Below are positions 7,185 to 59,770 of a stretch of 64,000 nt of DNA, piece by piece. The stretch is from Candidatus Poribacteria bacterium. GTDB lineage: Bacteria > Poribacteria > WGA-4E > WGA-3G. The DNA lies in the NCBI GenBank assembly GCA_963665235.2, contig CAXXLX010000001.1, forward strand, positions 4,300,705 to 4,364,704. The letters are read 5' to 3'. Under the pieces are notes generated by a model. The model made no database searches. It saw nothing but the letters and a program-made list of their open reading frames with translations, and had not been told where the DNA came from. A program made the translations under genes and the position numbers. Positions within the stretch are counted from its first letter, which is position 1. The number at the start of each line of letters is the position of its first letter.

Positions 7185-8297
7185 CTAGTTCGCTTCCCAT
7201 GGCGGTATGTCCCCAACTGGGGGTGGGGCAGGGAATCGGCTGGAGACATCGACCGGTTTTCGGAGCTCAGACGATTCAATAATCCGTTCGCAAACCTCTA
7301 GGACATGCCGAGCTTGGGCACCGTTGCAACGGGGTGCGCGATTGTTTCTAATTGCGTCTGCGAAATCGGCTACGCCTTTTCCCCAATCAAGTCCCGTATA
7401 TGCCTTCGCTGGAGAGGGTTCGTCTGTCCAGCTGGTTTTTGCTGTGAATTTTTTGATGCCGCGGCCATCATCGTGCGCCTGAATTGAGAATCCACCATGG
7501 GTGCCATGTATCTCATAAGGCGGAATGTGTGAGGTTACGGTGAAGCTGTGATAGATAAATCCATGGGCTGCTTGCGCTTCCGGTTGGTCAAATTCAAGGA
7601 CAGCAAACCCGTGGTCCTTTTCAGTCACCTCAAATTCGGTACCTTGACGCGGGCCTTGGTGTAATGTCCGCTTAGGGACAGCAACTCTGGCAAATCCGTG
7701 AACTGTCTTCACAGGTGCAATCATCGTTGTCATTGCGGTTAAGGGATAAGGGGCAACATCTCGAAATGGACCTGCATGTATCAAAAATGCGTCGGCATTT
7801 GGGTGCCAATATTCTAAGGGGCCCCCGAAGTTGCCAAGTGTTGAAATGACGGTCCCAATTTCGCCATCACGTATCCGTCTCCAGACGTTCTGCTGGACGT
7901 ACCCAAGTATGGCGGAGGGGGCACACGCTAATTTCAATTCCATAGCTTCGGCGGTTTCGACGAGTTCGTTGGCTTCATCGGTGCGGATAGAAATCGGTTT
8001 CTCTGAATAGACATGCTTTCCGGCTTTCAAGGCTGCAAGCGAGATGGGATAATGTGAGATGTGGATGGTCAAATTGACAATTGCTTCTACGTTTGCATCC
8101 TCTAGAACGGCTTCAAAGGATGGATAGACTTTTCCACCGTTTCTCTCAGCGAGTGCTGATGCCCGTGCTTTGTCCTGGTCATAAAAGCCGACCAATTCGA
8201 TATGGTTTGGATATGCTTGGCAGCGGGGCTGATAACCGCCAGCTGCAATCATGCCGCATCCGACAATAACGGTTCGGAGCGGGGTTGTATTAGCCAT
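7185..8297 (-). CDS. Gfo/Idh/MocA family oxidoreductase
   Basis: IVGCGMIA Rossmann motif and GKHVYSEKP. Confidence 0.9.
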   Translation of the reverse strand: MANTTPLRTVIVGCGMIAAGGYQPRCQAYPNHIELVGFYDQDKARASALAERNGGKVYPSFEAVLEDANVEAIVNLTIHISHYPISLAALKAGKHVYSEKPISIRTDEANELVETAEAMELKLACAPSAILGYVQQNVWRRIRDGEIGTVISTLGNFGGPLEYWHPNADAFLIHAGPFRDVAPYPLTAMTTMIAPVKTVHGFARVAVPKRTLHQGPRQGTEFEVTEKDHGFAVLEFDQPEAQAAHGFIYHSFTVTSHIPPYEIHGTHGGFSIQAHDDGRGIKKFTAKTSWTDEPSPAKAYTGLDWGKGVADFADAIRNNRAPRCNGAQARHVLEVCERIIESSELRKPVDVSSRFPAPPPVGDIPPWEAN

Positions 8298-8408
8298 TTT
8301 GCTTCTCCTTTTTTTTAGTCCTATACAGCATACCAGTTTTTCAACTAGAGGTCAAGAAGAAAATTAGCTCACTAGCGATTGGCAAGATGTTGTGATTCTA
8401 ATGAGGAA

Positions 8409-8549
8409 CAAGACTTACGCAGCGCGTTGATAAATCCTTCTGATAGTGGGATTTAGAGGGAGTCCTAGCGGGCGGGGGGACCCCGCCCAGAGGAGCGGGA
8501 AACTGTTTGCCCGAATACTGAGGGGCCTGCTAAATTTGCGTAAGTCCTG
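8409..8549. mobile_element. MITE family B with TIR CA(A/G)GACTTACGCA
   Basis: caagacttacgca at 8409 and tgcgtaagtcctg at 8537-8549; another end, caggacttacgcaaattt, at 53400. Confidence 0.6.
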
Positions 8550-8558
8550 ATTATGTTA

Positions 8559-8738
8559 TACCATTTTTATTAATTATTCTATCATTACCGGTTGTTGGAA
8601 ATGAAACGGAGAACGGAAGACACAAACTGGAAGTTTATGCTACGATAAAGAACACAAACTGGAAGTTTATGCTACGATAAAGAACACAAACTGGAAGTTT
8701 ATGCTACAAGAAAGAGACATTTTCAATTAGAAATGGTA
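8559..8738 (-). mobile_element. MITE family A, inverted, with three internal 32-bp units
   Basis: TACCATTT...AAATGGTA ends flanked by TTA/TAA; reverse complement of the other copies. Confidence 0.85.
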
Positions 8739-8810
8739 TAACTAGTCATAATGGGATGGAGGCTGCCTGAGGAATATCGGCAGCCTCTTCTGATTTGTAA
8801 CCGAACTTAA

Positions 8811-8952
8811 ACTCTGGGTCGAGAGAGTGTGTTATCATAATGATTAGGTCGCAGGTTCGAGCCCTGCCAGCAGTCTGAGCATGTGTCATGTGAAGCCTAC
8901 TGTAGCTCAGTGGAAGAGCAAATCAAAATGCATTCCAATCCTTATCCAGAGT
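8811..8952 (+). ncRNA. YrlA-like Y RNA copy 1 (tRNA mimic)
   Basis: Terminal stem ACTCTGGGTCGAG / CTTATCCAGAGT with Ro-binding GGNCGA motif; T-arm GCAGGTTCGAGCCCTGC, then a closed acceptor-like stem CAGCAG..CTACTG, then D-arm TAGCTCAGTGGAAGAGC (permuted order as in YrlA); upstream of a Ro60 gene. Confidence 0.85.
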
Positions 8953-8961
8953 CGCATTTGT

Positions 8962-9036
8962 GCGGGCCGAAGTATTGTGTTATCCTCCGTTTACTCTCGG
9001 GGCCGGAATCCCGAGCGCAATACACACCTTGTCCGC
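8962..9036 (+). ncRNA. Short Y RNA (YrlB-like) copy 1
   Basis: GCGGGCCGAAG ... CTTGTCCGC Ro-binding stem with bulged C; inner stem GTATTGTG/CGCAATAC. Confidence 0.8.
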
Positions 9037-9058
9037 CATGAAGAAATATTTTTTTAAT

Positions 9059-9088
9059 TTGACAACAGACACCTAAATGTGATATAAT
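9059..9088 (+). promoter_or_regulatory. Sigma70-type promoter upstream of Y RNA pair 2
   Basis: TTGACA-18 nt-TATAAT with an extended -10 TG. Confidence 0.6.
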
Positions 9089-9090
9089 AA

Positions 9091-9240
9091 CCCAAGTTGC
9101 TACTTATAAGTTTTTAGACCTGGAAACACCGTCTTTAATGAAAATATGCTGATAATTAGCTAATATTTGTCCGGTTCACTTCCAATTCGCACACAAATAT
9201 GCACAATCTGGAAGATTATGCTACTATGTGGCAACTTAGG
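9091..9240. mobile_element. MITE family C (150 bp, TIR CCCAAGTTGCTAC / GTGGCAACTTAGG)
   Basis: Near-identical second copy at 36411-36560; lone end at ~16133; AT-rich flanking duplication. Confidence 0.85.
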
Positions 9241-9326
9241 TTATAATATATAATTGCTGTATGAAAATGGATGTGCGCTGCCTAAGAAATATTGGCAGAG
9301 CCTCCTGATTCGAAGCCCAACTTAAA

Positions 9327-9453
9327 CTCTGGGTCGCGAGAGTGTGTTACCCCAGCGCAGGTTCGACTCCTGCCAGTAGACCAAGCTTCATGCGAAGCCT
9401 ACTGTAGCTCAGTGGTAGAGCAAAACTTCAACGCATTCTGTTCTTATCCAGAG
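9327..9453 (+). ncRNA. YrlA-like Y RNA copy 2
   Basis: CTCTGGGTCGCG / CTTATCCAGAG stem; T-arm GCAGGTTCGACTCCTGC; CAGTAG..CTACTG; D-arm TAGCTCAGTGGTAGAGC. Confidence 0.85.
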
Positions 9454-9463
9454 CCATATTTGT

Positions 9464-9521
9464 GCGGGCCGAAGTATTGTGTTATCTTTGAAAGAGCATT
9501 CGCAATACACATCTTGCCCGC
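9464..9521 (+). ncRNA. Short Y RNA (YrlB-like) copy 2
   Basis: GCGGGCCGAAGTATTGTG ... CGCAATACACATCTTGCCCGC. Confidence 0.8.
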
Positions 9522-9569
9522 CACCGATTTATAACTGAAGAATTTAAGGTGAAAATATAGGGAGGAACA

Positions 9570-9947
9570 ATGAAAACGTTTTCGATACAAACACTTATCG
9601 CGCTATTCCTCATCAGCGGCATACATTTTGTTTTCGCAGATTGTCCTGATGAGCAACTAAAGGCTGAAGGTTCGTTTTTCATCAATGAAGCGGATGAGGC
9701 CTATATCTACGGGCAGGCTTCAGTAAGCAATCTCACCTATTGGCCCGCCAAGAACATTGAGCAAGCCCATTGGCCCGCCCTTCTCTTTAAGAGAGCTTAG
9801 ATTAGTAGTGACCACTCCGTCAGTTGCTGGCACTACTATGAAAAAGAAAAAGAGACTTTCACCGTTTATTGGGCATACCGGCTGGTTGTCGATGAGGATG
9901 CACGGTATCAGGCGAATCCGCGATATGGTCCTATGATTCTGCTGTAG
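9570..9947 (+). pseudogene. Secreted hypothetical protein with an in-frame TAG at 9798-9800
   Basis: GGAGG SD and signal peptide; the frame stays open for 48 more codons after the TAG and ends next to the SD of the following gene. Confidence 0.5.
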
Positions 9948-9958
9948 GAGAAAAAACA

Positions 9959-10933
9959 ATGCGCACCCTTTTTATTATCAGCATACTCTTCATCAGTATC
10001 GTGCCCGTTGCCTCCGCAAAAATCGTGTGGATGGCGTTCTGGGAAATCTGTGTCATGGACGATGATGGCAGCAACCGCCAAAGATTGACACATAATGATC
10101 GCTATGACACGAAACCACGCTGGTCACCCAATGGAAAGTGGATCGTTTTTCAGGGCGAACAACCTAAGGAAACCAATGAACAAAATCATGATCTGTTCCT
10201 CATGAATATAGATGGAACACAGATACGGAAACTTACCACCTACACAGGGCTTGATGTAAATCCAGACTGGTCCCCCGATAGTCAACACATAGTCTTTACA
10301 AGTACGCGAGGTGATGTGACGAGTCTTCATATCCTGGATGTTGAGACACAAGATGTCCGCGACCTCACGCGCACCCTAAAGGGGCAGGCCGCGGATAGCG
10401 CGGCTTGGTCTCATGATGGGAAACAGATTGCCTATGTAGGCAAGACTCTAAACCCCTTCACATCCGCCATCTACATCATAGGGGCAGATGGTAAAAACCC
10501 ACGTGCCCTCTTCCGCCCCGTGGTTGCACAGTACCATTCTCCCGACTGGTCGCCGGATGGGAAACATATTCTGTATGGCGAAAAAAAAGCCGTAGGCAAA
10601 ATGCGGATTTCAGATAAAATCGTCATTCGCACCGTTAATGGGAATTTGGTAAAGGAATTAGAAATGCCGGCGCTTGCGAAATGGTCAATACAAGCCGCTT
10701 GTTGGATGGGGACGAAACATGTTCTCATTGATGCCATAGAAGACTTCAAAGCCGCTGATGGGGGGCAGAGTGATATCTATCGGTATACACTATCCACCGA
10801 TGAAATCGTCAATCTCACGAAATCAGATAGAACTAACGACGGTTTTCCGGATTGGATAGATGATGGGGCACTAGCTGTTTCTCCTGTGAGCAAACTCGCC
10901 ATCCGATGGGCACAACTCAAGCAAATCCATTAA
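9959..10933 (+). CDS. Secreted TolB-like (PD40 repeat) beta-propeller protein
   Basis: PRWSPNGK, PDWSPDS and PDWSPDGK repeats; C-terminal AVSPVSKLAIRWAQLK motif. Confidence 0.85.
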   Translation: MRTLFIISILFISIVPVASAKIVWMAFWEICVMDDDGSNRQRLTHNDRYDTKPRWSPNGKWIVFQGEQPKETNEQNHDLFLMNIDGTQIRKLTTYTGLDVNPDWSPDSQHIVFTSTRGDVTSLHILDVETQDVRDLTRTLKGQAADSAAWSHDGKQIAYVGKTLNPFTSAIYIIGADGKNPRALFRPVVAQYHSPDWSPDGKHILYGEKKAVGKMRISDKIVIRTVNGNLVKELEMPALAKWSIQAACWMGTKHVLIDAIEDFKAADGGQSDIYRYTLSTDEIVNLTKSDRTNDGFPDWIDDGALAVSPVSKLAIRWAQLKQIH

Positions 10934-10955
10934 GACAGTATCACAACTAAGAAGG

Positions 10956-11399
10956 TTGATTAACAGTAGCAAAAAATCTGTGTTTTTCAGAACATAAGCT
11001 TATGTTACTAAACCTTTTAGGCAATTAAACGTCTAAATTAATGTTTTACATCTGAATGTTCCGCGTTGTGAGTTGTGTTACTTAAACACCATGTACAGAG
11101 TGCTTAGCGGGCATCCGCCCAATGTTTGCCTGGGTGGGCACAACCTCTGACAACGAAAGTAGCGAAAACCAAGCTTTGATGGAAATAGCAGGCGGAAATT
11201 GTGATAAAAACCTGCTTGGTAGTGTGACTTCGAAGCACGTAAAAAACATCGAACCTTCACAGAAGAAGCAATAAGCGTTCGCTGCCTTGTGTAGCGAACT
11301 TTGGGAGATGACCCCTGGCTGTATTCGTACAGCTTGCAAAACGTGTGTGGAAGTGAAATACATAGTATTCCACGGAAATATACAGTTTAATATCATCGG
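10956..11399 (+). mobile_element. ORF-less ~444-bp structured element, copy 1 (putative non-autonomous IS607-like)
   Basis: Second copy at 11782-12718; both begin (A)TTGATTAACAGTAGC after GG and end ATATCATCGG; covarying hairpins between the copies. Confidence 0.7.
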
Positions 11400-11504
11400 T
11401 AACTGATGCCAACACTCACCCAACTGCGCGATGATGCGTTTTCAGCGTCCCAAGAGGCACATAACCGCATGAAACGGGAGATGGCTATCTACAAAAATGA
11501 ACTT

Positions 11505-11636
11505 AATTCTGGGTCGCGGGGATGTGTTACCGGGTCGCAGGTTCGACTCCTGCCAGTAGACCGAGCGTCATGCGAAGCCTACTGTAGCTCAGTGGTAGAG
11601 CACAATATTCAACGCATTCTGTTCTTATCCAGAATT
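11505..11636 (+). ncRNA. YrlA-like Y RNA copy 3
   Basis: AATTCTGGGTCGCG / CTTATCCAGAATT (compensatory change relative to copies 1-2); same T-arm, acceptor-like stem and D-arm. Confidence 0.85.
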
Positions 11637-11642
11637 TTATTT

Positions 11643-11730
11643 GGCGGGCCGAAGTCCTACGTTAACTGCCCGTATAGTAATACACAAAGTGTATCTATAC
11701 TTAAATATCGTAGTACACACCTTGCCCGCT
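11643..11730 (+). ncRNA. Short Y RNA (YrlB-like) copy 3
   Basis: GGCGGGCCGAAGTCCTACG ... CGTAGTACACACCTTGCCCGCT. Confidence 0.8.
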
Positions 11731-11781
11731 GCCTTAAAAAAACGTTAAAAATATAAACCAAACTTAAACTCTGGGTCGAGG

Positions 11782-12718
11782 ATTGATTAACAGTAGCAAA
11801 AAACCTCTATTTTTCTAGGAACATAAGCTTATGTTCCTAAACCTTTTTGAGAACTTGACATACTCTCCCAGCTAAAGCAAGGGAGATTCTTTTAAAAAGT
11901 TCCGCTACGCGTTAGCTATTGGATTGTGGTTTTCAGACGTGTGAACGTCAACGGAGATGCTTGGGCTGTTCCAAGTCTTACTGCCCCTAACTCAAAGGAA
12001 TGCCCTTCGTGCTTCGCACCTTCTTTATGCGTTGTGAATCAGTGCTTTGGTATCCAATGCAGCATGACCCGTCTTTTGGATACCGAAAGCATTGCACAAA
12101 AATGTGGATATTGACTGGGTATCGCCAGAACATCAGCACACAACCCTACCATAGGTTGAGGTTCGGAACTTCAACATTGGTGGCGTTGAAGGTGGTAATC
12201 CGAACCACTGATGATATATATATTATACCACATTTTAATGCAAAAGTCAAATTAAAATTTTAGCTCATGCGCCGCTACTACATCCCCCAGCTAAAGCACG
12301 GGGGTTTTGTAGCGGAAGACTTGATAAATTTATGTTTTTAATGTTTTACATCTGAATGTTCCGCGTTGTGAGTCGTGTTACTTAAACACCATGTACAGAG
12401 TGCTTAGCGGGCATCCGCTCAATGTTTGCCTGGGTGGGCATGACCTCTGACAACGAAAGTAGCGAAAACCAAGCTTTGATGGAAATGAGAGGGCAAAGAA
12501 AACGTGAAAAAACCTCTCTGGTAGTGTGACTTCGAAGCACAATAAAAACCTCGAATATTCACAGTATAAGCGTTCGTTGCCTTGTGTAGCGAACTTTGGG
12601 AGATGACCCCTGGCTGTATTTATACAGCTTGCAAAACGTGTATGGAAGTGAAATACCTAGTGTTCCACAGGCTTCAGGCTACAAGCCTGCTCTTCAATAT
12701 ACAGTTTAATATCATCGG
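11782..12718 (+). mobile_element. ORF-less structured element, copy 2, inserted in Y RNA 4 and carrying a nested MITE
   Basis: Colinear with 10956-11399 once 11855-12323 is removed. Confidence 0.7.
11855..12323 (-). mobile_element. Non-autonomous IS200/IS605 derivative (no tnpA or tnpB) with promoter and omega-RNA-like 3' end
   Basis: Both ends nearly identical to those of the TnpB element 58362-59770 (TTAT|CAA..AAAA-hairpin left end; GAAT-hairpin..TCAA right end); TTGACT-17-TATAAT at 12250-12222. Confidence 0.85.
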
Positions 12719-12823
12719 CGCACATCATCGGAAGCAAGCAGGTTCGACCCCTGCCGGCGCACTTGTGTTTGACGCGCAAGTTTGCCGAGCAATGTCCGCT
12801 GTTTCTTATCCAGAGACACATTT

Positions 12824-12890
12824 GGCGGGCCGAAGTCCTACGTTAACCTATATTTATCCCATATAACCCGTAGGACACACCTTGCCCGCT
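12824..12890 (+). ncRNA. Short Y RNA (YrlB-like) copy 4, directly upstream of rsr
   Basis: GGCGGGCCGAAGTCCTACG ... CGTAGGACACACCTTGCCCGCT. Confidence 0.8.
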
Positions 12891-12910
12891 ACATTTCAAA
12901 AGGTGACATC

Positions 12911-14557
12911 ATGAGCTATTTAGGGAAATATTCTCCATTGCATCCACATCAGCGGCAGCCGTTGGACGAAAAACAGGTCCAAAATTCTGCCGGCGGATAC
13001 GCCTATCCTGTCTCTATCTGGACAAACTTAGACCGGTTTCTCATTTTAGGGACCGAAGGCGGCTCCTATTACGCCACAGAACAGGATTTGACGAAGGTCA
13101 ATGTCGATGCTGTCAAGCAGTGCATTGCCGAGGATGGGGTTCAAGTTGTTGAGCGGATACGTGAGATTTCTGTCTCCGGGCGCGCCCCGAAAAATGACCC
13201 CGCATTATACGCACTAGCCCTTGCCTTTACCCATGGCGATACGGCAACGAAACGAAAAGTGGAAGAGGTCTTCTGTGATGTCGCACGTATCGGCACACAC
13301 CTATTCAACTTTGTGGTGTTTGTAGACGGTATGCGTGGCTGGGGCAGGTCGCTACGCCGATTAGTCGGCAACTGGTACCGCACGAAGGACGATAACACCT
13401 TGGCGTATCAGGTCCTGAAATATCAATCTCGGAACAGTTGGCGGCATGCGGATGTCCTTGCAAAGTGCCACTACGGTGAAAACCGGGGCATCTACCGTTG
13501 GATAAAAGGGCTTGACACGGATAAGCGTATTGTGCATCGCACCCTACAAAATGAAGAAAAGACAGCTACCGTTTACGAGGCCACCGACGCTTTGCCTGAA
13601 TTGCTCGCCGGATATGAGGACCTGAAACGCACAGAGAAACGCGTGGATGTTATCCAGCTCATTGAGAAACATCAATTCACCCACGAAATGGTGCCGAACG
13701 AGTGGAAAAATGAAACGGAAGTATGGGCGGCGTTGCTACAGAACATGCCCGTTATGGCAACGGTGCGAAACCTCGGTAAGATGACGCAAATCGGGTTGTT
13801 GAAACCTTTTGGAGCAGAGGTTCAAACCGTGCTAGAAAGACTCTCCGCTGAGGCGATTCAACGTTCGCGCATCCATCCTATCCAAATCCTTATGGCGTTG
13901 ATAACATACAAGGCAGGTAAGGGAGTGAGAGGCAGCTTAACCTGGGAGCCCGTGCCGCAGATTGTTGATGGGTTGGACGCTGCGTTTTATATGGCGTTCG
14001 ATAACGTTGAACCGAGCCAAAAGAACACGCTCCTAGCACTTGATGTCTCTGGGTCAATGGCAGGCAGAACTGTGGCAGGATGTGAAGGCTTAACACCGCG
14101 TAATGCGTCCGCTGCCATGGCACTCGTAACCGCACGCACGGAACCGCATTATCATATCTTCGGGTTTTCAGAAGGTTTTGTGACCCTGCCGATTACAGCA
14201 AACGATACGTTGGATAGTGCTATTAAAGCTGTCTCTGGATTGCCCTTTGATGGCACCGATTGCGCTCTCCCCATGCTGTATGCATTGGAACATAAACTAC
14301 AGATAGACACCTTCGTCATCTATACAGATAATGAAACGTGGTATGGCGACATTCATCCGAAAACAGCATTGGACAACTATCGGCAAAAGATGGGGCGACC
14401 CGCAAAGTGTGCTGTTGTCGGGATGGTGGCGAACGACTTCTCTATCGCTGACCCAGAGGATGCGGGCATGCTCGATTTTGTCGGGTTTGATACCGCTACA
14501 CCTGCATTGCTCAGTGATTTCGCTAAAGATGCAGACATCTCCGATGAAACGGCGTAA
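12911..14557 (+). CDS. rsr: Ro60-related TROVE domain RNA-binding protein (Rsr)
   Basis: NSAGGY, LDRFLILGTEGGSYY, RGWGR, KYQSRNSWRHAD TROVE motifs; vWA MIDAS DVSGSM, GTDC, YTDNETW; ATG 12911 with AAAGGTGA SD. Confidence 0.95.
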   Translation: MSYLGKYSPLHPHQRQPLDEKQVQNSAGGYAYPVSIWTNLDRFLILGTEGGSYYATEQDLTKVNVDAVKQCIAEDGVQVVERIREISVSGRAPKNDPALYALALAFTHGDTATKRKVEEVFCDVARIGTHLFNFVVFVDGMRGWGRSLRRLVGNWYRTKDDNTLAYQVLKYQSRNSWRHADVLAKCHYGENRGIYRWIKGLDTDKRIVHRTLQNEEKTATVYEATDALPELLAGYEDLKRTEKRVDVIQLIEKHQFTHEMVPNEWKNETEVWAALLQNMPVMATVRNLGKMTQIGLLKPFGAEVQTVLERLSAEAIQRSRIHPIQILMALITYKAGKGVRGSLTWEPVPQIVDGLDAAFYMAFDNVEPSQKNTLLALDVSGSMAGRTVAGCEGLTPRNASAAMALVTARTEPHYHIFGFSEGFVTLPITANDTLDSAIKAVSGLPFDGTDCALPMLYALEHKLQIDTFVIYTDNETWYGDIHPKTALDNYRQKMGRPAKCAVVGMVANDFSIADPEDAGMLDFVGFDTATPALLSDFAKDADISDETA

Positions 14558-14639
14558 ACCTGTACTGCCATCGGATATTCGGGCCACCCTCTAAACCAAG
14601 ATTGTGATGTAATAACAATCTAAGTGAAAGGAGTATCCA

Positions 14640-14726
14640 ATGGCGAAACGAAAACGAAGAACCTTTGGAATTTCAACGACAACACTTGTCTTAACTTTGC
14701 TAATTTTTGGTCTGAATAACCGTTAG
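14640..14726 (+). CDS. Putative 28-aa basic/hydrophobic peptide MAKRKRRTFGISTTTLVLTLLIFGLNNR
   Basis: AAAGGAG SD 6 nt upstream of ATG; below the ORF-track length cutoff. Confidence 0.4.
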   Translation: MAKRKRRTFGISTTTLVLTLLIFGLNNR

Positions 14727-14790
14727 CAGGACAAATGTCTTTCACACCTTATCCTCCAAACAACCCGTTCCTGATGGGGCCCTCTTTTTA

Positions 14791-15417
14791 TTAATCTGAA
14801 TAGTTGCATGAGACTTCTTTGTTGAAAAAAATCGGGTCATGCCAATAACATCCGACACACGTTCCATTGTATAATCCATTACCACGCACTTGGCTAACTT
14901 GATAACCTAAGCGTTTCGCGTCAAAACGCTGCCCTGTCTCTCGACACTCAACACAATGTTGTCTCTTGGCATAATTAGCAGCCTTCGATAGTGGTTGAAA
15001 ATCATCAAGTGTTACCTGATTTGCGTCACTCAGCCTCGGGTCGTCCAGTCTTCCGTCTTTATGGTCACACTCTGGACCACTTGTTCCCAATACAACACAG
15101 CGTTGTGCCCTCACCTCCTCTCTAATGTTATTGGGTATTGGCTTTTCAGTAACCGGGACTTTTCTAAAGCCTTGCAACTCAACGTGAGTTATTTTACCTC
15201 TGCCTTCAGGGTGGCGGCGAATATTGTAATATCGTGATAAACTACCGTCTTTGCGTATCCAATCACCCCCGTTTCCAAACTGGAGTGATGCATATTTTCC
15301 TACAAATTCTGTAACTGGAACTGGACAGCTGAAACCGAGATCATCTGGTTTAGCAAGCTGAATAAACAGCGCAGGCTTGCTTCCTTTTCTAAACTGAGAG
15401 CCTTGATCGTTACTCAT
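14791..15417 (-). CDS. HNH restriction endonuclease, IceA1/NlaIII family
   Basis: LF..LAKP, FGNGG.W.R, DHKDGR.DD.R, DDFQPL.KA.N..KRQ.C..C, CVGCY..DP motifs recalled from H. pylori IceA1; start overlaps the MTase stop (ATGAGTAA). Confidence 0.8.
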   Translation of the reverse strand: MSNDQGSQFRKGSKPALFIQLAKPDDLGFSCPVPVTEFVGKYASLQFGNGGDWIRKDGSLSRYYNIRRHPEGRGKITHVELQGFRKVPVTEKPIPNNIREEVRAQRCVVLGTSGPECDHKDGRLDDPRLSDANQVTLDDFQPLSKAANYAKRQHCVECRETGQRFDAKRLGYQVSQVRGNGLYNGTCVGCYWHDPIFFNKEVSCNYSD

Positions 15418-16111
15418 TCTCAATCCTCTCTTGTGAAATTTTCGCATAATTGGAATCTATATCACATCCTGCAAACCTTCGGAAATTTCTGACGGCAGCA
15501 ACACCTGTAGTTCCTGCTCCAAGGAATGGGTCCACAACAAGATCGCCCTGGTTACTGTGCTTGCGCACTAAATCCTCAAATAACTCTAAGGGTTTTTGTG
15601 TAGGGTGTTGTCTTTTACCCTTATGTCGAGGGATTGGATATTCATAGATACCAGAGTCATACTGGCTATGGAAAGTAGGTGTACCAACTTTGACCCCTGC
15701 AACAGCCATTTCTCGACTGTTAGAAAGATAAGTAGAGCGCATATTTAACGGGACAGGGTTGGTTTTCTGCCAGATAATCTGGCGAATCATTTTAAATCCT
15801 GCTAACTCCATAGCCTCTTTTACCTTACCTATCTTCCAAAGATCATACCACACGATGGCAGTTCCGCCACGACGCAAGGATTTATAAAACACCCTTGCCA
15901 TCGCTTCGAGATTTATCTCAACGTGATCCCATACACCGAAGTCCATACTAACGGCGAATTTCTTTTCACCGTTCACCACTGCCGAAAATCCTGTTTTTTT
16001 ACTAATGCAATATGGTGGATCTGTTAAGATAAGGTCTACTGATCCAGCCGGTAACGAATCCATAAATTCATGATAATCAGATACTTTGACGCTAAATTCT
16101 GTAAAGGGCAT
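15410..16111 (-). CDS. Site-specific DNA N6-adenine/N4-cytosine methyltransferase, beta class
   Basis: TDPPY precedes HPTQKP and DPFLGAGTT. Confidence 0.9.
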   Translation of the reverse strand: MPFTEFSVKVSDYHEFMDSLPAGSVDLILTDPPYCISKKTGFSAVVNGEKKFAVSMDFGVWDHVEINLEAMARVFYKSLRRGGTAIVWYDLWKIGKVKEAMELAGFKMIRQIIWQKTNPVPLNMRSTYLSNSREMAVAGVKVGTPTFHSQYDSGIYEYPIPRHKGKRQHPTQKPLELFEDLVRKHSNQGDLVVDPFLGAGTTGVAAVRNFRRFAGCDIDSNYAKISQERIENE

Positions 16112-22540: not shown

Positions 22541-22818
22541 GAAAAAACCCTCCCGTTCCAAAACTGGAGACGAGAAGGCTCTATAAGATTACCTTACCGT
22601 GGTACCACTCCAATTCCCGTTCTCATTTTTTCACTGAGAAAGGGCACTCTTGGGGATGCGATAACGGGCATCACACCGGCTAACCCTACACAACAACCCA
22701 TGCCTTCGGATTAGCAGCTCCAGGGCGACCTTCAGTCGGTAGCACTTGAGGAAACCTCTCAGCCTACGAATTTCCTTCTCTGACAAGCCGAGCCGACTTA
22801 CTCCTCCCCTTCAACGCT
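22541..22818 (-). promoter_or_regulatory. T-box riboswitch leader of ilvBNC (probable GUC Val specifier) with intrinsic terminator
   Basis: Minus strand: AGTA, AGAGA and GCTGAGA stem I motifs, GAAG-GTC-G specifier loop, CCGTTATC, T-box AATTGGAGTGGTACCACG, terminator CCTTCTCGT...ACGGGAGGGTTTTTT. Confidence 0.9.
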
Positions 22819-22872
22819 TTTTTTGTAAATTTAATTCAACGTGTTACTAAAAATTGTGTTTCCTTTTTTTAA

Positions 22873-57242: not shown

Positions 57243-57882
57243 TAACAGAAAACCAAGACATTTTTCGGAGGAAAGCGGCACGGTTTGCAACTCACCTGAC
57301 CAGACACCGATAGCGTTTGTGTCAAAAAGTGTAACATTTTCACCGGAACCGCATCAAAAGTAGGAGGCAGAACGCTAAAAAAGTCCGCAGAACTGATACC
57401 CGAAATCGGCAGTTGAAATGACACACTTCGTTTTTTATGTGTTGCGAGAAATATATGTCGAAACCGCTTTCAAAGCTATGCGTGGCATGCGTTTGTGCGA
57501 CTGCAACACCGAAAACCGAAAGTCACACTTTGTGTCAAAAAGTGTAACATTTTCACCGGCCCCGCCTCAAGAAGTAGGAGGCAGAACGGTAAGAAAAGTA
57601 GTCAGGACAGATACGTGAAATCGGCAGTTGAAATGACACACTTCGTTTTTTATGTGTTTTGAAAAAGAGAGGGCAAAACCGCTTGAAAACATAGACGTTG
57701 AGTGCGTTCAGAGGAGTTCAGGACTGAAAATCGGATGTCACACTTTGTGTCGAAAAGTGTAACATTTACCCCCGGATGGCACCAAAAAGCAGACATGTTA
57801 TCAAAAAACCGCTTTTTCCGTGTTCTCTGCGTTCTCTGTGACCTCCGCGATTCTGACAGTTGTACAAAAACTTTACGCACCC
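57243..57882. repeat. Repeat module with an internal ~210-bp tandem duplication, related to 104-560
   Basis: aagtaggaggcagaacg...gaaatgacacacttcgtttttt...cacactttgtgtc.aaaagtgtaacattt occurs twice. Confidence 0.75.
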
Positions 57883-58148: not shown

Positions 58149-58361
58149 TAATATGATAAAATCGGAACTTTTTTCGAAGAAAAACCGGGCAATTTGCAAC
58201 TAATATGATAAAATCGGAACTTTTTTCGAAGAAAAACGAGGTGGTTCGCAACTAACATGGTAAAACCAGCTTCTATATCACAATTGAGGAGGATTGGGTA
58301 TTCACCGAGATATTATTGACAGCAAAAATTCCTTGCATCCGAGCGGTTTTTGTGATATTAT

Positions 58362-59770
58362 CAAATCTTCCGCTACAAAACCCCCATGCTTTAGCTGGGG
58401 GATGTAGTAGCGGCGCATGAGTTGAAATTTTAATTTGACTTTTCCTGAAAAATGGGTTATACTCTATTTAATGCCTTAGCGGAGAATCTATAGACTTCTC
58501 CGCCCCTTTTTAGAGGCAGGTAGCAACTTTTCAAGGCAGGATACCCTTAGATGTATACCACAAAATACAAACTTTTTCGTGCCCCGCGTAATCGTAATCT
58601 CAAGCGTTTAACGTGGGTGGCCCATGATGTTTGGAACTATTTTTTAGGTTGGCAGCGGACGCGCTATTCTCTTGGTCTTGCGTATATGTCGCTTCCTGAG
58701 ATGTCGCGTGCCTTTACCGTCCTTAGGAACTCACATCCTGAAGTGTTTTCGCACTGGCGTGAGTTAGACTCTTGGGCGGCGCGTGATATACTGCGGCGTT
58801 TAGACACCGGGTATCAGCGTTTTTTTAAGTGTATTGCGAAGCGTCCGCCTAAGTTTCGTTCATGGCGCAAACCGTATTCATTCACAATGTCCCCCTCTGG
58901 CTATAGTTTCTATGGTGATAGGGTCCGTATAATGGAAAAACAATATCGGTTTAATCTAAGCCGCGAGATAGTAGGTAATATTAAGACAGTCACTATCAAA
59001 GCAGATAGCGTTGGTGACTTCTATATGTGTGTTGTAACAGATGACACCGTATCTGAAATCCTACCTAAGACGGGTAGTGCTGCAGGGTATGATTTCGGTA
59101 TCAAAACGATGTTCACCTGTTCCGATGGCACAGCCTATGCGTCTCCTGAGTTCTATAAAACCTCTATGGCGGATTTGTCTGTGGCACAACGTGCCCATGC
59201 TAAGAAAGTAAAGGGTAGCAACAACTGTGAGCGTTCCCGCTTAAATGTGGCGCGCAAACACCGTAAAATCAAGAGACAACGTGAAGACCACCATTGGAAA
59301 CTCGCGAAGCGTTTTGTGCATGAACAAGATCACCTCTGTTTTGAGACGTTGACTTTTGAGGGAATGAAACGGTTGTGGGGGTGTCAAGTTTCTGATATTG
59401 CGCCCTACTCGTTTCATCAAAAGTTGCAACATCAAGCGGTCAAACACGGTAAAGAGGTTCACTATATTGACCGTTTTGAACCGACTTCTAAGACTTGTAG
59501 CCACTGTGGACAGCGAAAACAGCAGCTGGACTTGTCTGTTCGTCAATGGTGTTGTTCTACTTGCCATCAGAAACATCATCGGGACGTTAACGCTGCCATA
59601 AATATTTTAAAGGTTGGGGCGTCAACCTTTGGATTAGAGGATGTCAGTCTTGCTATTGCGAGCAGCCCTCGCAGACTTCACCCGAAGTCTATACCCCACA
59701 ATCCGCACCAGAGAGCATGGGATTCACTTTCAAAAGAATCCCCCTTGCTTTAGCTGGGGGAGTATGTCAA
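58362..59770 (+). mobile_element. IS200/IS605 family (IS1341-type, tnpB only) element, target motif TTAT
   Basis: TTAT|CAAATC, AAAA guide + CCCCC..GCTTTAGC..GGGGG hairpin at left; GAAT + same hairpin + TCAA at right. Confidence 0.9.
58551..59753 (+). CDS. tnpB: RNA-guided endonuclease TnpB
   Basis: RuvC D (GYDFGI), E (CFETL), D (RDVNAAINI); zinc finger CSHC...CSTC; PPKFR. Confidence 0.92.
   Translation: MYTTKYKLFRAPRNRNLKRLTWVAHDVWNYFLGWQRTRYSLGLAYMSLPEMSRAFTVLRNSHPEVFSHWRELDSWAARDILRRLDTGYQRFFKCIAKRPPKFRSWRKPYSFTMSPSGYSFYGDRVRIMEKQYRFNLSREIVGNIKTVTIKADSVGDFYMCVVTDDTVSEILPKTGSAAGYDFGIKTMFTCSDGTAYASPEFYKTSMADLSVAQRAHAKKVKGSNNCERSRLNVARKHRKIKRQREDHHWKLAKRFVHEQDHLCFETLTFEGMKRLWGCQVSDIAPYSFHQKLQHQAVKHGKEVHYIDRFEPTSKTCSHCGQRKQQLDLSVRQWCCSTCHQKHHRDVNAAINILKVGASTFGLEDVSLAIASSPRRLHPKSIPHNPHQRAWDSLSKESPLL

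Follow-up and report, generated by a model that had tools for sequence, protein, structure and literature searches.

The stretch of DNA analyzed here (hereafter the window) comprises 64,000 nucleotides (nt) of contig CAXXLX010000001.1 from a "Candidatus Poribacteria" bacterium (assembly GCA_963665235.2, positions 4,300,705 to 4,364,704). It contains an rsr gene, which codes for a Ro60 orthologue, and, immediately upstream on the same strand, an array of candidate Y RNAs; all coordinates below are those of the window. The 548-amino-acid (aa) Rsr protein matches both the TROVE domain (Pfam ID PF05731, 1.2e-35) and the Ro60 vWA domain (PF25045, 2.1e-61), and it is the product of the single Ro60 gene in the window, as a tblastn search with this protein recovers only itself. 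Its closest relatives, with 73 to 99% identity, come from "Candidatus Poribacteria" wherever the organism is named. Those with 93 to 99% identity are entries of the protein collection (P0001 to P0003), and the closest DNA available for comparison encodes a Ro60 with 84% identity.

The array upstream of rsr

The array is made up of four units, each consisting of a long RNA followed by a short one, so that seven or eight RNAs in strict pairs extend over 4 kb. The four short RNAs, designated s1 to s4, are all on the forward strand upstream of rsr, at distances of 20 nt to 3.9 kb (1.2 to 3.9 kb for s1 to s3), and each of them starts 9 or 10 nt after a YrlA-like RNA that mimics tRNA. The predicted members of the array and the gene that follows them are listed below.

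8812-8951 (+): long Y RNA 1, YrlA-like tRNA mimic of a "B-like" type with an extra AUCAUAAUGAU hairpin (T-arm and D-arm motifs; fold)
8962-9037 (+): short Y RNA s1, hairpin bearing (covariance model R1, 77.4 bits; folds)
9327-9453 (+): long Y RNA 2, YrlA-like, "A" type (sub-threshold Rfam YrlA match at 9356-9421, 31 bits)
9464-9522 (+): short Y RNA s2, open loop, P class (model R1, 73.9 bits; loop-only minimum free energy [MFE], 0.0)
11507-11634 (+): long Y RNA 3, YrlA-like, "A" type (full-length sub-threshold Rfam YrlA match at 11507-11637, 36.4 bits, E 2.9e-05)
11644-11730 (+): short Y RNA s3, hairpin bearing (model R1, 72.1 bits)
11769-11780 (+): long Y RNA 4, 5' fragment of 12 nt, CUCUGGGUCGAG (11756-11780 matches the start of unit 1 at 96%)
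12719-12815 (+): long Y RNA 4, 3' remainder, ending in CUUAUCCAGAG (T-arm kept)
12825-12890 (+): short Y RNA s4, open loop of 26 nt (model R1, 84.6 bits; loop-only MFE, 0.0)
12911-14557 (+): rsr, Ro60 orthologue, 548 aa

The short RNAs have a common scaffold with the consensus GCGGGC-C-GA-A-(8-bp stem)-UUA ... (stem)-ACAC(C/U)-UU-G(C/U)CCGC, that is, a terminal stem of 6 base pairs (bp), a bulged C, a GA/UU step, and an inner stem of 8 bp that is followed by UUA. The inner stem is GTATTGTG/CGCAATAC in s1 and s2 and GTCCTACG/CGTAGGAC in s4; s3 has a stem of the same type as s4 with one C.U mismatch. The folds of s1 to s4 beat those of shuffled sequences, with MFE z scores of -2.2 to -4.7. In each of the four, positions 5 to 11 read GCCGAAG. 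This heptamer fits the GNCGAAN0-1G motif near the 5' end, which Chen et al. (2014, PMC4201824) relate to GGUCCGA, a sequence that Xenopus Ro60 contacts.

A preliminary description of this DNA had proposed four short Y RNAs with a constant scaffold and unrelated inserts. Both the copies and this contrast are there: the quoted middles occur verbatim at 8983-9015, 9485-9500, 11665-11708, and 12846-12868, and comparisons of middle with middle give z scores between -1.3 and +1.3 against shuffles. The middle of s1 consists of a 16-nt single strand containing CCGUU, followed by a 7-bp hairpin with the 6-nt loop CCGGAA. This hairpin had been described as degenerate and T-arm-like, a reading that was rejected, as its structure is not that of a T-arm and it has no Rfam match of the YrlA or tRNA-like kind. 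In s2, the middle is an unstructured 19-nt loop, UUAUCUUUGAAAGAGCAUU, and in s3 it is a 12-bp hairpin with a 10-nt 3' tail. In YrlB- and Yrn2-type RNAs, a long hairpin is closed by a small loop rich in pyrimidines; here, pyrimidines occupy seven of the first eight loop positions in s2 and five of eight in s4, whereas s1 and s3 have a branched middle with a hairpin. The possibility that s1 to s4 are themselves YrlA RNAs was considered and rejected: they have no T-arm or D-arm, and none of the YrlA matches at E<=10 overlaps a short RNA, all of them falling on the long RNAs upstream.

Long RNAs 1 to 3 each have a T-arm, a D-arm, and a Ro-type terminal stem. Long RNA 1 ends in CUCUGGGU-C-GA / UU-AUCCAGAG, which yields a Ro-type bulged stem, and its Rfam YrlA match (8843-8925) scores 27.5 bits, compared to a gathering score of 69. 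Long RNAs 2 and 3 are 89% identical over 101 nt, and the terminal stem of the latter, UUCUGG/CCAGAA, represents a compensatory change from CUCUGG/CCAGAG. In the 3' remainder of long RNA 4 (12719-12815), there is no D-arm motif and no YrlA match at E<=10.

Related loci and the two kinds of middle

A single scan of genome contigs with the Ro60 protein yielded 54 loci, 17 of them from the Poribacteria group (L001 to L017; 73 to 84% identity) and the remaining 37 from other phyla. A covariance model built from s1 to s4 detected 24 additional RNAs within the Poribacteria group; they are distributed over 16 of its 17 loci and lie just upstream of rsr on the same strand. Eight of these loci have one short RNA and eight have two, so that the four in the window are the group maximum; at the remaining locus, L017, a long RNA is present and the covariance-model scans found no short RNA. 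The sequence GGGCCGAAG is present in 24 of the 28 Poribacteria short RNAs, and the bulged base varies in 3. Among 36 matches, two-sided changes are seen in 13 of the 16 scaffold pairs, with 98.2% of the cells paired and none of 500 shuffles scoring as high, in an alignment that was fitted to the model, which favors this result.

The organization of the unit is conserved as well. The short RNA starts 8 to 10 nt past the 3' end of a long RNA in 27 of the 28 cases, the exception being the distal RNA of L003. The distance from the 3' end of the rsr-proximal RNA to the start codon is 14 to 25 nt in the window and 12 of the 16 relatives and 61 to 123 nt in the other 4; in the window, the gap between s4 and the ATG is 20 nt and includes an AAGGUGA ribosome-binding site. 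The order long RNA, short RNA, rsr matches the one described for Mycobacterium smegmatis. Long RNAs of types A and B, the latter with an extra AUCGUAAUGAU hairpin, are found among L001 to L017, and across genomes either type pairs with either kind of short RNA. Thus, with D and P denoting the two main classes of short RNA (see below), six loci have A+D followed by B+P, L002 has B+D followed by A+P, and L009 has B+P alone.

In the loci from other phyla, a second-round model (R2) produced 22 matches in 15 of the 37, including weak ones with E values as high as 0.16. In these phyla, GGUUAYC follows the inner stem of the same scaffold, which holds either short middles or full tRNA-like domains (e.g., L024 9437-9560, L040, and L036). 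Since tRNA-like inserts are carried by the same scaffold in these phyla, it is the general bacterial Y RNA scaffold. Members of Fimbriimonadales (Armatimonadota) have four Y RNAs in a row at L024 (8864-9560) and three at L033 (9461-9933), upstream of rsr, and both arrays mix tRNA-like and short middles on one scaffold; for Fimbriimonas ginsengisoli, the available part of the 2014 supplement (PMC4201824) lists one YrlA only.

The middles of the Poribacteria RNAs are of two kinds. The open-loop kind includes 16 P-class RNAs, s2 among them, with loops of 16 to 21 nt, as well as s4 and the proximal RNA of L003, with loops of 26 to 27 nt. In all 18, the loop-only MFE is between 0.0 and -0.2 kcal/mol, the A/U content is 59 to 88%, and 5 to 7 of the first 8 nt are pyrimidines. 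The hairpin kind includes the D-class RNAs of seven loci (L001, L002, and L012 to L016), s1, s3, and the distal RNA of L003; here, a single strand of 10 to 16 nt precedes a hairpin, and the loop-only MFE is -6.1 to -9.8 kcal/mol in the five RNAs that were folded, just two of which are from the seven-member D class.

The two classes also evolve differently. In the P class, the change amounts to 0.471 in the middle and 0.096 in the scaffold, compared to 0.526 at the fourfold sites of rsr (120 pairs, 16 RNAs), and in the D class, the respective values are 0.139, 0.074, and 0.456 (21 pairs, 7 RNAs), all pooled over pairs that are phylogenetically non-independent. The mean identities of the middles agree with these rates. 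The open loop drifts in sequence at about the neutral rate, with its length and lack of structure kept, whereas the D-class middle is constrained and under purifying selection in the relatives. Whether each middle is conserved as a class was a check proposed in the preliminary description. At least one kind is: the D-class hairpin shows such conservation, down to the compensated pairs of s3 described below. The open-loop class, which includes s2, changes across 16 genomes at about the synonymous rate, the outcome that had been named there as counting against the proposal.

Middle sequences were compared with 11 of the relatives' 24 RNAs as targets and with 500 shuffles. The s2 loop resembles P-class loops (z of 3.56 versus L016, 0 of 500 shuffles), s4 resembles the rsr-proximal RNA of L003 (7647-7713; z of 2.87, 6 of 500 shuffles), and the s1 middle is weakly similar to the D class (best z of 2.55, 5 of 500 shuffles). 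In a plain, sequence-only MAFFT alignment, s3 keeps all eight pairs of the D hairpin, three of them through double changes (G-C to A-U, C-G to U-A, and G-C to A-U). It has flanking letters in common with the D class and, like the D RNAs, is the distal member of the rsr-proximal pair. On these grounds, s3 is a probable divergent member of the D class.

Expansion of the array and later insertions

The rsr tree contains a clade of the one-unit loci, a second clade with six two-unit loci, and a pair made up of L002 and L003; the window falls near the two-unit groups without a firm placement. Within the array, scaffold likeness follows adjacency, with s1 like s2 and s3 like s4, and hairpin middles (s1 and s3) alternate with open ones (s2 and s4). 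The inner stem of s3 and s4 is seen in none of the 24 RNAs of the relatives. The scaffolds have thus been homogenized or duplicated locally, with both kinds of middle kept, and this retention provides the strongest argument in the present data for the difference in kind being important. The same pattern, with scaffolds grouped by adjacency and kinds of middle alternating, bears out the earlier description of Ro60-type Y RNAs with a constant, predicted binding scaffold and an exchangeable middle. The scaffolds of s1 to s4 are intact and their flanks have diverged (81% identity upstream versus 93% across the junction). The data show in part that the array arose by expansion from the one or two units present in the relatives and was afterwards broken up by insertions. 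The following further features lie in or between the units.

9059-9088 (+): sigma-70-type promoter-like site, TTGACA-18 nt-TATAAT with TG, between units 1 and 2 (12 of 12 consensus matches)
10951-11400 (no strand assigned): noncoding repeat of ~450 nt, copy A (89% identical to 12338-12668)
11781-12718 (no strand assigned): composite insertion of ~940 nt, consisting of repeat copy B (11778-11850 plus 12338-12718) with a nested mini-element (repeat comparison)

The ~450-nt repeat does not belong to the Y RNAs. It lacks a conserved open reading frame (ORF), matches no Rfam family at E<=10, and occurs in none of the 54 fetched loci. The mini-element (~470 nt, 11855-12327) has ends that match, in inverted orientation, both ends of a TnpB element at 58358-59770, whose ORF (58551-59753, 400 aa) contains the OrfB_IS605 (PF01385) and PF07282 domains; a CCCAGCUAAAGCA(A/C)GGG hairpin is found at both ends. 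The mini-element looks like a TnpB-less derivative of an element of the IS200/IS605 type. Long RNA 4 has been split by the ~940-nt insertion and is probably defective, while s4 is intact. Further invaders of the array are an ORF at 9570-9800 and an ORF for a PD40 beta-propeller at 9959-10933.

Promoter-like sites number 9 in the region, compared to 8.6 expected from shuffles. The one at 9059-9088 is the only perfect one, and it is identified by its match to the consensus only. Two other repeats lie close to long RNAs 1 and 2. A 32-nt unit, ACACAAACTGGAAGTTTATGCTACGATAAAGA, is present in three perfect or near-perfect tandem copies and a fourth, diverged one (8620-8715 and 9201-9232); it can form a short hairpin and is positioned ~100 to 200 nt upstream of long RNAs 1 and 2, where it may serve as an operator or RNA element. 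An 81-nt repeat with 81% identity (8754-8834 and 9269-9349) runs into the same two long RNAs; in it, a hairpin rich in G+C, GAGGCUGCC...GGCAGCCUC, precedes a U-rich stretch that lies directly upstream of the RNA start.

Immediately downstream of rsr, on the opposite strand (14791-16111), a gene of the IceA family (PF05315) overlaps a gene for an N6/N4 DNA methylase (PF01555), and the two probably form a restriction-modification pair. The sole above-threshold Rfam match in the window is a T-box leader at 22563-22823 on the reverse strand (110.1 bits versus a gathering score of 93). ARAGORN detected no tRNA or tmRNA in the 64-kb window.

Identity and possible roles of the short RNAs

The closest parallels to s1 to s4 are YrlB of M. 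smegmatis and Salmonella Typhimurium and Yrn2 of Deinococcus radiodurans, second Y RNAs without likeness to tRNA that are short, associate with Rsr, lie beside a tRNA-like Y RNA, and have the GNCGAAN0-1G motif near the 5' end; in M. smegmatis, YrlB lies between YrlA and rsr, with one precursor for both, in the order seen here (PMC4201824). In contrast to YrlB and Yrn2, there are four copies rather than one, and s1 and s3 have an extra internal hairpin; the 8- to 10-nt coupling to a long RNA and the one- to fourfold repetition of the unit are features that the available part of PMC4201824 does not describe for either RNA. According to the same source, homology searches failed to find YrlB outside Salmonella. 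Among the 54 loci, which do not include M. smegmatis, none matches the YrlB probe of that species given there, with up to 5 substitutions allowed.

YrlA (RF02553) of other phyla has the same scaffold as the short RNAs, G(C/U)GGGCCG(A/G)AG ... GGUUAYC ... CUUG(C/U)CC, and the same modular plan of a Ro60-binding stem and an effector module (bioRxiv 10.1101/312249). The long RNAs of Poribacteria differ from YrlA in a slightly different terminal stem (CUCUGGGUCGA...) and score 27.5 to 36.4 bits, compared to the threshold of 69. Metazoan Y RNAs (Y1, Y3, Y4, and Y5) offer another parallel: several paralogues have one Ro60-binding bulged helix and differing loops, which bind different proteins (10.1101/312249), and their helix sequence GGUCCGA (PMC4201824) corresponds to GGGCCGA here, with the partner strand compensating; the letters after the upper stem may be a further likeness. 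However, the metazoan RNAs come from separate RNA polymerase III genes, whereas the window has a bacterial, operon-like array with no Rfam Y_RNA match at E<=10. Several Y-type RNAs before a single rsr are also known from D. radiodurans, in the form of small RNAs a to e (PMC4201824), and the Fimbriimonadales arrays at L033 and L024 have Y-type RNAs in a row, in both tRNA-like and short forms. Unlike these, the seven or eight RNAs in the window are in strict long-short pairs and have been spread over 4 kb by insertions.

That the second module of Y RNAs tethers effectors and that additional Y RNAs widen the range of Ro60 ribonucleoproteins (RNPs) has been published (PMC4201824; 10.1101/312249). 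A literature search returned no paper linking Poribacteria with Y RNAs or Ro60, with one incidental co-occurrence, and the name "Poribacteria" is absent from the five of the six supplements of PMC4201824 that were searched. New findings are the occurrence of this family of short Y RNAs in Poribacteria, the repetition of a strict long-short unit one to four times, and the division of the middles into a constrained hairpin and a drifting loop.

We consider it fairly probable that s1 to s4 are YrlB-type short Y RNAs of Poribacteria that come in a hairpin kind and an open-loop kind and have a Ro60-binding scaffold, an assignment made from sequence and predicted structure. By analogy with the published model, the scaffold would bind Rsr through the terminal stem, the bulged nucleotide, the GA/UU step, the GCCGAAG motif, and the second, 8-bp stem. 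Each short RNA would be made on one transcript with the YrlA-like RNA upstream and then excised, as described for M. smegmatis, with the last one lying within the rsr leader, where s4 may additionally act in cis. The middle would be the effector module of the published model. In the hairpin kind, it could be a specific protein-binding module. The open loop would act without sequence specificity, either as a platform for S1 and KH domains, e.g., those of PNPase, which contact the effector part of Deinococcus Yrn1 (10.1101/312249), or as a mere Ro60 gate.

Several observations weigh against this assignment. The short RNAs have no Rfam match, to Y_RNA (RF00019), YrlA (RF02553), or any other family, at the gathering threshold over the window, at E<=10 over positions 8000 to 15000, or in the s2 region taken alone (9455-9530, 76 nt, E<=10). 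A strong consensus promoter is found at unit 2 only. The broken long RNA 4 and the stem mismatch of s3 may indicate that part of the array is decaying. The middle of s1 has no clear relative, its z of 2.55 being the best obtained, and the rates of the two classes come from the pooled pairs noted above. The D hairpin is invariant among the seven D RNAs, and therefore these sequences provide no covariation. With the D-class covariance model (R3), s3 is the lowest of 14 matches (41.5 bits), its middle being deleted in the alignments shown, and by plain sequence its middle is not above shuffles in comparison with the middles of 3 D RNAs (z of 1.54 or less); because of these two results, the link between s3 and the D class rests on one sequence-only alignment and on position.

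A more specific version of the favored assignment appears possible, and we advance it tentatively: the middle would be a swappable cassette on a homogenized scaffold, and the hairpin cassette (D, s3, and perhaps s1) a second, non-tRNA-like effector module with a dedicated partner.

It is unlikely that the short RNAs are simply redundant, i.e., that a duplicated cluster raises the dose of a Ro60 "gate" RNA, with middles that serve as spacers and undergo neutral divergence and turnover by insertion and deletion. Under such redundancy, one would understand why the open-loop middles drift at about the neutral rate, why one or two units suffice in the relatives and L017 has none, why L003, the sister of L002 in the rsr tree, is without a D hairpin, and why the array is full of insertions and its long RNA 4 broken. 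However, constraint on the D-class middle exceeds that on fourfold sites about threefold, compensatory changes have preserved the s3 hairpin, the open loops of 16 RNAs hold a length of 16 to 21 nt and their lack of structure, and all four scaffolds have stayed intact despite the divergence of their flanks.

A role of s4 primarily in cis, as a Ro60 site in the 5' untranslated region of rsr that mediates feedback on rsr translation, would be compatible with the favored assignment, and we regard it as rather unlikely. The placement of s4 20 nt before the ATG, with AAGGUGA in between, and the similar gaps of 14 to 25 nt in 12 of 16 relatives speak for it, but s1 to s3, at 1.2 to 3.9 kb from rsr, would be left unexplained, the gap grows to 61 to 123 nt in four relatives, and in M. 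smegmatis the RNA located here undergoes processing and is bound in free form (PMC4201824).

The preliminary description had also proposed guide-like segments. Outside their own positions, the middles find complements of at most 9 to 12 nt in the 64-kb window, lengths matched or beaten by 157, 186, 30, and 18 of 200 shuffles, so that complementarity within the window is not above that of shuffles and lends the guide idea no support. Searches of phage records gave two weak matches, which involved only the tRNA-like part of the unit 3 query and left the short RNA unmatched. Pairing of the short loop with its own long RNA was also considered and rejected: the cognate energy is -13.08 kcal/mol versus -12.62 kcal/mol for noncognate pairs (standard deviation, 6.76), and there is no co-variation. 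Separately, the complement of the s3 hairpin tip (11 to 12 nt) occurs at 286-297, 500-511, 57525-57535, and 57740-57750, as two pairs spaced by 214 to 215 nt; each occurrence is singly at chance level, and their recurrence suggests another repeated element.

A model in which every one of the four middles serves as a separate adaptor or guide, with one Ro60 forming four RNPs that have four different partners or RNA targets, is improbable: the middles are unrelated in sequence and still differ in kind after pairwise homogenization of the scaffolds, one class of middle is conserved in the relatives, and extra Y RNAs may widen the Ro60 RNP range (PMC4201824), but there are two architectures rather than four, the class of s2 changes at near the synonymous rate, and the guide tests gave complementarity within the window no better than shuffles, no co-variation of loop and long RNA, and a phage match to the tRNA-like part only.

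If the tentative cassette version of the favored assignment is true, the tRNA-like RNAs (three or four), together with two RNAs of the hairpin kind and two of the open-loop kind, would provide at least three functionally different RNPs from one Ro60, which would make this Y RNA repertoire the largest in the 55 loci compared. The general picture of Y RNAs is unchanged by these findings. They do show that a simple scaffold model recovers non-tRNA-like Y RNAs that have been reported to escape homology searches, in 16 of 17 Poribacteria loci and, more weakly, in 15 of 37 loci from other phyla. The hairpin and open-loop RNAs of Poribacteria provide a concrete pair for asking whether different Y RNAs give Ro60 different partners.

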